IMG/VR virus record: IMGVR_UViG_3300025921_000002
Location: 10,997-74,996 of that record
Source of the DNA: a virus
DNA length: 64,000 bases
Strand: one strand, 5' to 3'
This document shows positions 29,780 to 32,700 of the stretch, piece by piece; position 1 is the first letter of the stretch; the number at the start of each line of letters is the position of its first letter. Below the pieces are notes generated by a model. The model worked only from the letters and a program-made list of their open reading frames with translations. It made no database searches and was not told where the DNA came from. The translations under genes and the position numbers were made by a program.

Positions 29780-32700
29780 TGGGACAATTTAGCTGGACTC
29801 CACCATCAACTGATGAACCTGTAAAGAAAACAGGATGGACTCCACCTGCTTCTGATATTCCTGTCGTTGAAAAAAAAAGTCCAGTTGGCAACGCTTCTGT
29901 GGCTACCTCAACGCAGTCTGGCGATGGCTCAAGTCCTTCCCCTCTCCAACAAAGTCTTACTAATGCTATGAAAGCGTATAGCATTACGCATACGCCAAAA
30001 GAAGTTAGTGATGTTCAAAACACAGTAAGCCAACAAAAACAAGAGGATAAAATAGCAAGAACCCCCGATGCTGTAGTTGCCCATGAGAAATACATGGAAA
30101 CACCCTTAGGTAAAACACAGGGCGCTTTTCAATATGTTGGCTCTAAAGCCTCTAAAGGTGCTTTACAGATAGCTAAAGGCGCTACGTGGCTATATAATCA
30201 TACTTCGGCCAATCCAATTCAGGGAATGATTGATGAAGTAAGTAATCAGCATAAAGGACAGGAAGATTTTTTCAACAAAGCAGATAAGGCAACTAACTTA
30301 GGTTTGACAGCTACCGACCTGCAAAACATTGAAAGCAATAAAGGTATAGGTGCTTCTGCCTTACGCACCGCAGGAACGTTCGCCGAGATAGCGCCAACAA
30401 TATTAGGCGGCGAAGCATCTGGCGCACCAAAACTTGCCTTTGCATTACAGGGATTAGGACAGGGAAAAGAAACAATGGATGCAGTTGACCCCGACCATAA
30501 AGTTAACCCTGCAATAAGGGACGGCTTTATAGCCCTGAATGGCGCTTTTAATGCCGCTTTAATGGGTGACGCAGCAGAAACTAACTTTGCTAAAATGCCT
30601 GCCGCATTACGCGGTAAAATAAGTTCAGCTTTAGCTATGGACGCTATTAAGCAAAATGGCGAAAAAGAAATAACTGGTGAACTTGTTGACCATACCGTAA
30701 AAGACTTTGCCCATAACTTTTATAAATTAGGCACAGACTATGTACAAAAGGTAGCCCGTACAGGCGTTGACCTTTCAGCATTGCAAGCAGCAACTGGCTT
30801 AGCTAAATATGGTGTAAATAAAGCAAGTGGGCAGGAGGTTTTTAAAAATCCCGCAGGAGAAACCGCAGAAGGGGTAAGCAACGCTGTTTTACAGCAAGCA
30901 CCTGTTTTTGGTGCAGCAGGTACAGTAGGTGACCTTTCAAAGTTAACTCCTTATTCATCTTTTAAAAACGAGGTTTTTGAGAATATTGTTAAAGACCCAA
31001 GCCAAACAGATGCTATTAAACAGGAAATAGCACAACATGGTCAGGAAAGAGGATGGACACCGGAAGAAATTCAGGCCACTAACGACCATATTGACCAAAT
31101 AAAAACAGTAGCGCAAAGACTCCCTGAAACTATTAAACCTGAAAAAAAATCAGATGCAGTTCAATTAGTACTTGATCGGGATGCCCTAAAGAAACAACTG
31201 GCTAATGAAGTTGGTAAAAGAGGCGCGATGGATGAGTCTGTTAAGGATTTGCCTAATGCTCACGAAGAATGGCTTACTGACAAGATTGAGCAAGCGAACG
31301 ATAAGTTAAGGGCTATGGCTACGGGCAAGCGTACAACTTATTCTAAAGGCGTTGGCGACGAGGAAGGAAAGTTCTTCAAAACTACCAACGGCGAAAAGGA
31401 AGAAATAACTGAAAATAGGTATAACTTAGAGAAGTTAGAACGCACAGCAAATGAAAATACTAATGAACAAGAAAAAATAAACAACAATGAAAAAATCAGC
31501 AACCAAAGCGAACAAGAAAGCGGTGTTCAGCAAACCGCCAGCGGGGAAAAAGTGGCAGAACAGCCCGGCAACCCCACCGAAAGCGTCCAAGCCATCGGCA
31601 ACGGTAGTAGCGAAAATGAAGAAAGGCTGTTAACAACAGGGGGTGAACAGCCCCCTTTAAAAGCCATTAAAAACAAGGTTGATGAAAAAAATGCTCAAGA
31701 CCCGGATTTTTCAGAAAAGAATTATGACGCATGGGAAGAGCACCGAATGGGTTTGGAAAAACAAATATTCCATGAGCCAATAGATGAAAATTTACCCATT
31801 AGTGAAAATATTAAACTTTTAAATAAATCATTAGAACCTGAATTTGAAAAAATAAAACAAGTTATAGGCGATGATGAAGTTGCTGATAAGTATATTTCAG
31901 CTATCCAACGTAACCCAAAACGTGCTGAAAAAATAAGGAATGAATTACCAAAAGATGTTCAGGGTAAACTATTCAACCGAATAAATGAGGATGATTTTGA
32001 AGATAATAAACAGCAAACTGACGAATTTGAACATCTTAATTCAGAAAGCGATAGGGATATAACAGACGAAATGAAATTTTCATGGATAGGGAAAAAAATA
32101 ACCTCTCCATCCGACATGCAAAAGCCATTTAATCGAGTTATTGTGAAGGATTTAATTTCCCAATTGGCTGACAAGGGTTATTCGCAGGAAGAAATAGTCC
32201 GAAGGGCTATGCAAGACCGTGTTAGTCGGGGCGATAATGCCGAGCATGTAACTGAATTGGTTAAGGCTGTTTTGGAAGAACACGGTAAAAAATCTGAACC
32301 ACAACAAAAACAAATAGAAGGAGGTAAAAATGCCACTAAAACCGGGAACATCGAAGAAAACAATCAGCAGCAACATCAAGGAACTGTTGGACAGCAACAG
32401 GGGGTCGAAGAAAATCGGCAACACCAAGAAGAACCTGTCGCTAAAAGCCAAACAGAAACAGGCGGTAGCAATAGCATTGAGCAAGGCGGCCAAGTCAAAA
32501 AAACAATCCTAACTAAACGAGCCTACGAAGGAGAGATACAGCTCGAAGTAAAAAAGCATCTTGAAGAAAAGGGGCTGACACGTAAGTCATTCTCACAAGA
32601 GGAACGCTCTAAACAAGCTACCGACTTTATTAATAAGTTTGGTGAAGAAGCGGCACAAAAAGCAGTTGAAGCAGGAGATATAGACGGTGGTATGGCCGCA

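Follow-up and report, generated by a model that had tools for sequence, protein, structure and literature searches.

Can a small gene be kept inside the coding sequence of a giant phage protein, so that one stretch of DNA serves two reading frames? This question is raised by a locus in the IMG/VR virus record IMGVR_UViG_3300025921_000002, a complete 75-kb record of which positions 10,997 to 74,996 were analyzed (64,000 nucleotides, hereafter called the window; positions are those of the window unless another locus is named). Within a giant open reading frame (ORF) of 1707 codons, the host gene, lies a complete ORF of 60 codons (32330-32512, + strand) that starts with ATG, ends with TAA and is read from the same strand in the +1 frame. 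A first-pass annotation of the sequence had quoted this ORF together with the sequence in front of it, which contains a Shine-Dalgarno (SD) motif, and both the coordinates and the quoted peptide agree with what we find. It had also taken the ORF for a real overlapping gene and not for a chance shadow of the larger frame. From the comparisons described below, we consider it quite likely that 32330-32512, here called the microgene, is indeed a real overlapping gene that is under selection.

The peptide encoded by the microgene (P0001) matched the protein family phrog_2423 with an E-value of 1.8e-10 (41.6 bits), and a word-indexed search returned 23 homologues of 44-72 aa that share the pattern MPLKxGxSxKTISxNIxEL...KQAVAIALSKAGKSKKK. 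Both family motifs, MPLKxGxSxKTISxNI at the N-terminus and KQAVAIALxKAxKS at the C-terminus, are present in the window peptide, as are all the invariant residues of the family (M1, P2, S8, S13, N15, A45, I48, A49 and A53). With a family profile, 7,656 representative clusters (50% identity) were detected at E ≤ 1e-3 and 2,517 at E ≤ 1e-10, the usual form being a helical hairpin of roughly 45-90 aa with a Lys-rich tail. The homologues of the +1 peptide that the first-pass annotation had proposed to look for are therefore abundant. Purine-rich linkers do yield long open frames, such as an antisense ORF over the same segment (32152-32493, - strand) or a second +1 ORF in the same giant gene (31487-31633, + strand), but a chance shadow ORF unrelated to any gene family is refuted, as the peptide has homologues in phrog_2423 and among thousands of small proteins of phages, and we give this explanation practically no chance. 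For the antisense ORF (113 codons), the purine-rich, T-poor + strand is the simplest explanation, and the second +1 ORF (48 aa) matches no PHROG family at E ≤ 0.01.

The Pfam family PF20106 (DUF6496) is matched by 7 of 25 aligned relatives (best E-value 2.1e-6), and the window peptide itself matched no Pfam family at E ≤ 1, DUF6496 included. As judged from these matches, the window peptide is related to the DUF6496 family but is not a demonstrated member of it. Its closest peptides are P0003 (79% identical) and P0004 (71%), neither of which is compatible by back-translation with any retrieved host protein. When P0001 and P0022 were compared with named phages by tblastn no match was obtained, probably due to low-complexity masking, and the same search with a longer family member led to a single cultured phage, DSL-LC04, whose copy of the gene is labeled hypothetical. 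A full-text literature search on DUF6496 returned no paper. The microprotein has a mass of 6.4 kDa and a pI of 10.8, with 16 Lys/Arg compared to 2 Asp/Glu residues, and its AlphaFold model (pLDDT 77.6) consists of a helix (residues 9-22), a loop and a second helix (residues 38-58). A BFVD fold search with this model gave nothing at E ≤ 0.001, and a profile search of the PDB gave only a chance 16-residue match and no solved or named similar protein. Within the microgene, an imperfect direct repeat of 23 nt (74% identical) links 32351-32373 (encoding SKKTISSN) to 32405-32427 (encoding SKKIGNTK), and a partial internal duplication may be the origin of the long loop of the window subtype.

The nesting itself is not confined to the window. 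At least seven nested copies of the microgene are found when the window is included, each of them in the +1 frame with respect to its host ORF (Table 1), the hosts being large ORFs of 850-2230 aa, and three complete genomes contain no member of the family besides the nested one. A GGAG element lies within about 13 nt upstream of the ATG in every clear nested copy elsewhere. The ATG, the upstream GGAG, the open frame and all the invariant residues are kept in all seven copies, despite a divergence of about 50% at the peptide level. A hidden Markov model (HMM) built exclusively from 91 free-standing members gave 73.9 bits for the window peptide and a range of 58-83 bits over the seven nested copies, compared to 61-97 bits (median 73) for the training members. 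Apart from the window and L001 hosts, which are homologues, similarity among the hosts of nested copies, as searched by BLASTP and with a profile of the C-terminal module of the window host, did not extend beyond the "shadow" that the microgene casts in the host frame, except for the L094 host, which carries a distant copy of that module and belongs to a complete genome of 54.9 kb with direct terminal repeats. Four further candidates were rejected as nested cases. At L039 and L049, the start of an adjacent gene accounts for the open host frame, and at L097 (6975-8522) and L123 (6996-7676) the relative frame is another one and the overlap is of a different type, a long ORF (516 and 227 codons, respectively) beginning a few codons before the microgene ATG and running through the microgene.

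In the host frame, the dual-coded segment is poor in hydrophobic residues and consists to 47% of G, E and Q. Its DNA contains 11% T, and none of the microgene codons ends in T. The first-pass annotation had left room for the host frame being the conserved one across this segment; it is the +1 frame that is conserved, and the host frame reads a low-complexity linker. In order to assess whether such an open host frame comes for free, the peptides were held fixed and synonymous codons were resampled from the codon usage of each phage. The host frame then stayed open in 0.2% of the cases for the window (P = 0.002), in 0.015% for L001, in 0.005% for L016, in 1% for L037 and in less than 0.005% for L063. 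In the equivalent frame, most free-standing microgenes are interrupted by at least one stop codon, and just 3 of about 50 are free of stops. The third codon position of the microgene coincides with the first codon position of the host, and T occupies it in 2% of the codons of nested copies (range 0-6%), compared to 22 ± 9% in the 91 free-standing members (Mann-Whitney p = 7e-6). Also, in all hosts for which both flanks of the microgene are available, codon-position GC in the host frame is coding-like on either flank. This evidence for selection is comparative and is not a formal two-frame dN/dS analysis; it indicates that both reading frames are under selection. The free-standing-only HMM, the resampling and the third-position T together bear out the earlier proposal of a real overlapping gene at the level of sequence comparison.

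These data also bear on the possibility that two separate genes flank a free-standing microgene, chance or a sequencing error accounting for the open frame between them. A segment with so little T has fewer stops in every frame, and the 3 of about 50 free-standing microgenes mentioned above are likewise open in that frame by chance. However, the probability of an open frame is small for the window and still lower in three of the four other copies tested, and third-position T is nearly absent only in nested copies. The first start codon available to a separate C-terminal gene occurs only at about residue 972. Moreover, the relative in L085 (1682 aa) and 36 other relatives without a microgene (1130-2174 aa) keep a continuous architecture from a WTPP motif to the C-terminal module. 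In an independent DNA run from the rhizosphere, the region 32133-33058 has the identical sequence, and 4 contigs are on record with the giant protein, which makes a frameshift of the assembly unlikely; the same identity of independent samples speaks against a sequencing error. Two flanking genes are thus an extremely unlikely explanation.

The microgene is preceded by an AGGAGG core at a distance of 5 nt from the ATG (Table 1), and its start region is A-rich and unstructured, with a minimum free energy of -5.2 kcal/mol over 101 nt (z = +0.6). SD-like motifs precede only 3 of 33 gene starts on the + strand of the window between positions 1867 and 46107, most leaders being A/T-rich, so that the SD sequence of the microgene is unusual in a phage that otherwise is almost wholly SD-less. 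The terminase of this phage has its closest counterparts, at about 25% identity, in podophages of Flavobacterium and Cellulophaga, and the samples come from rhizosphere metagenomes; SD-less starts and terminase kinship together suggest a Bacteroidota host with translation of the Bacteroidota type. The A-rich, open context may be the working start signal in this phage.

Instead of internal initiation, a +1 slip on GGT AAA AAT G could fuse the N-terminal half of the giant protein (850 residues) to a basic hairpin tail, in which case no free peptide would be made. The A AAA A run in front of the ATG would permit re-pairing of tRNA-Lys in the +1 frame, and +1 shifting can be stimulated by an upstream SD-like element, as in prfB, which counts in favor of such a slip. 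In contrast, the A-run occurs only in the window and is missing in L001, L016, L037, L063, L094 and L098, whereas ATG and GGAG are always there. Also, the N-terminus of the family is always exactly MPLK, and the spacing between SD and ATG fits an initiation site. Frameshifting as the source of the hairpin is therefore very unlikely.

Which of the two frames is the older one? Microgenes are not present in L085, L086 and L087, relatives of the window host, across 13-15 kb, and the corresponding junction of L085 is a plain low-complexity linker. Among 40 further host relatives (1130-2174 aa), 36 are without a compatible microgene and a possible +1 microgene is found in four (P0182, P0179, P0215 and P0216). 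The carriers contain three peptide subtypes, a long-loop "GSKKIG" subtype (window, P0215 and P0216), a short-loop subtype (L001/P0182) and an "ELHxGKTY...KFGK" subtype (P0179 and also L094), and the microgene is situated 56 (window), 170 (P0182) or 297 (P0179) residues before the conserved KKTILTKR motif of the host. Since most host relatives lack the microgene and since subtypes and positions differ among the carriers, the microgene would be the older element and would have been captured repeatedly. This suggests that the host's reading of the segment is derived, the reverse of classic overprinting. In the family tree the nested copies are scattered, with 6 changes for 7 rows, at least 2 of them forced by supported branches. 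Loss from an ancient nested state is the alternative, and repeated capture or exchange of the microgene is the simplest reading. No flanking direct or inverted repeats that would mark an insertion were found.

According to the scenario that we propose, a microgene cassette with its ribosome-binding site would have been captured, more than once, into a disordered linker of a giant gene. Ribosomes on the giant gene would pass straight through the microgene, so that in the host protein a flexible linker rich in G, E, Q and N joins the variable N-terminal half to the conserved C-terminal module. Ribosomes that start internally, at the AGGAGG-N5-AUG of the microgene within the unstructured A-rich stretch, would make the microprotein. 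Repeated cassette capture into linkers of giant genes is a tentative conclusion to which we assign somewhat less than an even chance. Similarly, just short of even is our estimate for the full scenario, in which a pan-phage cassette of ribosome-binding site and ORF is recurrently captured in the frame that yields a harmless G/E/Q-rich linker and is then recoded without third-position T, so that both products come from one DNA.

Several points weigh against an old, selected and repeatedly captured gene. Differences between window and L001 are distributed over codon positions 1, 2 and 3 as 18, 15 and 22, a weak signal by itself. From two metatranscriptome studies of the rhizosphere there are RNA-library contigs that span 31500-31702 and parts of 33003-33437 and not the microgene, although such contigs cannot show initiation, transcript starts, levels or absence. 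As the genes of this phage are almost all SD-less, the SD sequence may be a relic of the donor that was carried with the cassette and not a working signal. The nesting in P0179, P0215 and P0216 was deduced from the proteins by back-translation compatibility and not from DNA. The microgene is dispensable for the giant protein, being absent from most host relatives. Finally, resolution of the tree is poor; it does not by itself distinguish gain from loss, and how many independent captures took place is uncertain.

Some of these points would also fit a fossil, that is, a captured microgene that now is only linker-coding DNA and whose own frame is untranslated and merely undecayed. The host frame is clearly selected, most host relatives do without the microgene, and the SD sequence is of a kind not normally used by this phage. 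Yet a fossil would hardly retain ATG, GGAG, open frame and invariant residues in seven copies at about 50% divergence, nor would an independent profile be expected to rate it on a par with free-standing members. Also, the nested copy is the sole one in three complete genomes, though the family is very widely kept elsewhere, and +1 ORFs of the unselected type in T-poor linkers (31487-31633 in the window and 9807-10013 in L085) are without a PHROG match. We therefore regard a fossil linker as unlikely. The L085 ORF (+ strand) encodes a different basic peptide of 68 aa at the equivalent linker junction of a host without the microgene; T-poor linker DNA is its probable source, although it has place and frame in common with the microgene.

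Table 1. Features of the host gene and the microgene in the window, and hosts of the other nested copies (coordinates of L094 are those of that locus).
Feature	Position	Strand	Description
Host gene	29779..34902	+	1707 aa, giant ORF in virion structural module
Variable N-terminal half, residues 1-850	29779..32328	+	residues 360-596 are 39% identical to L001 host
Ribosome-binding region GAAGGAGGTAAAA	32317..32329	+	AGGAGG core 32319-32324, 5 nt before ATG
Dual-coded segment, host residues 851-912	32329..32514	+	NATKTGNIEENNQQQHQGTVGQQQ..., G/E/Q/N-rich linker, no stops
Nested microprotein gene	32330..32512	+	60 aa; long-loop subtype of phrog_2423 / DUF6496-like family
Conserved C-terminal module, residues 903-1707	32485..34902	+	
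Host in L001 (=L084)			at least 1370 aa, full length 1786 aa (P0182); homologue of window host
Host in L037 (=L089)			1964 aa; GNAT domain
Host in L063 (=L096)			2230 aa; C-terminal match to internal virion protein, phrog_6651
Host in L094	6391-9453		1020 aa; weak DarB-like match, antirestriction phrog_10089, E 1.4e-5
Host in L098			850 aa; no annotation
Host in L016			at least 796 aa, ended by contig edge; no annotation

The giant gene follows, in this order, genes for TerL, portal, virion structural proteins and a 1295-aa tail protein, and precedes a beta-helix/Ig tailspike-like gene. From this gene order its product is presumed to be a packaged or ejected protein of the "cargo" type. The 1707-aa protein has no match in Pfam, in PHROG or, by tblastn, in named phages, and no hydrophobic segment above threshold. 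Its C-terminal module, the start of which is overlapped by the last 9 microgene codons (GGQVKKTIL), is 64-75% identical in L001 and L085 (64% in L085) and 31-35% identical in L086 and L087, and the L094 host is distantly related. The N-terminal motif WTPP..D.PV is common to the window and L085 hosts.

For the genomic context of the family, we surveyed over 100 different IMG/VR loci. The majority of members are free-standing genes directly 3' of the portal gene, and in the commonest layout the order is terminase, portal (phrog_1216), microgene, GroES-like gene and capsid-region gene, with an 11-nt overlap between microgene and portal stop in many cases. Phage DSL-LC04, the sole cultured example, has the same gene order. 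The first-pass annotation had assigned the motif to stand-alone small genes in phage head/packaging modules, and this proved correct, the typical place being right after the portal gene. The window copy breaks with this norm, as it is located 17 kb downstream of the portal gene and inside the 1707-aa ORF. In a second common form, the hairpin is fused N-terminally to proteins of 124-362 aa beside genes for "DNA ejection / virion structural protein". One widespread fusion subfamily combines the hairpin with a domain of about 120-170 aa that carries the motif HVGPIHSPVAGRTDHLPMHV (L109 5732-6283, L043 4001-4645, L065 4001-4639 and many others); it adjoins ejection-protein-like genes and has only weak matches, to the PHROGs of unknown function phrog_11341 and phrog_16028. 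Pfam and PHROG scans of the extra domains of the fusions gave no functional name.

What might the microprotein do? The cues are circumstantial and comprise the strong positive charge, the helical hairpin, the coupling to the portal gene, the fusions beside ejection-protein genes and the matches of some hosts to internal virion, DarB-like or acetyltransferase proteins. The window host shows no homology to known internal virion or ejection proteins, such matches being found only for the L063 and L094 hosts. Judged by its neighborhood, the microprotein could be a small basic virion-associated protein, portal-proximal or head-internal, that is made and packaged with giant ejected proteins, an assignment that we offer with some reservation and rate below our scenario for its capture. 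The capsid-internal DNA-binding role proposed in the first-pass annotation is plausible considering the charge of the peptide (pI 10.8), the predicted helical hairpin and the gene neighborhood.

Long same-strand overlaps in phages with double-stranded DNA are usually dismissed as annotation noise or as young overprinted genes. The locus described here provides a natural test case for two proteins that share one sequence, in which the nested gene would be the older one by homology and the host frame, by its codon statistics, would have been fitted around it. Gene callers that bar nested genes miss, in such genomes, the sole copy of a very common phage microprotein. An uncharacterized family of thousands of clusters is hereby tied to portal and giant virion-protein genes, which hints at where its function lies. 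A single base change that is synonymous for the host would abolish the start codon of the microprotein. If our reading is true, the output of the microprotein may be tied to the giant virion protein packaged with it.

In the literature on giant packaged proteins and on overlapping phage genes we found no description of such a nested microgene. Giant proteins that are packaged or ejected are known as crassvirus cargo proteins (PMC10172136) and as P1 DarB-like and other polyvalent proteins (PMC5512222). Like these and the internal virion proteins of the T7 type, the hosts of nested copies are very large, modular and linker-rich and reside in virion modules; unlike them, the 1707-aa protein of the window is without a family match and its virion location is deduced from gene order. 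The microprotein resembles phrog_2423 and DUF6496 proteins in its motifs, including KQAVAIAL[SN]KAGKS, its Lys-rich tail and its size class, and differs from them in being nested and not free-standing.

The closest formal parallel is the Rz/Rz1 pair of phage lambda, in which the +1 frame of the i-spanin gene contains the entire o-spanin gene (PMC6139136). In both cases, a complete small gene with its own start is located on the same strand and in the +1 frame inside a larger gene, with both frames constrained. The microgene has no relation to spanins in sequence or function, however, and whereas genes of the Rz1 type are lineage-restricted partners of their hosts, the window family occurs as a separate gene in thousands of genomes, and its nested copies lie in several hosts without detectable relationship to one another. 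Overprinting denotes the de novo birth of an overlapping gene within an older gene (PMC8227390), and as in overprinting one stretch of DNA contains two coding frames, one of which is of low complexity and disordered. In contrast to overprinting, it is the short nested frame that is widespread (7,656 clusters), and it is the host family that is small and mostly without the segment. If our interpretation holds, the microgene would represent a recurrent gene-in-linker route to overlapping genes, with a polarity opposite to that of overprinting.

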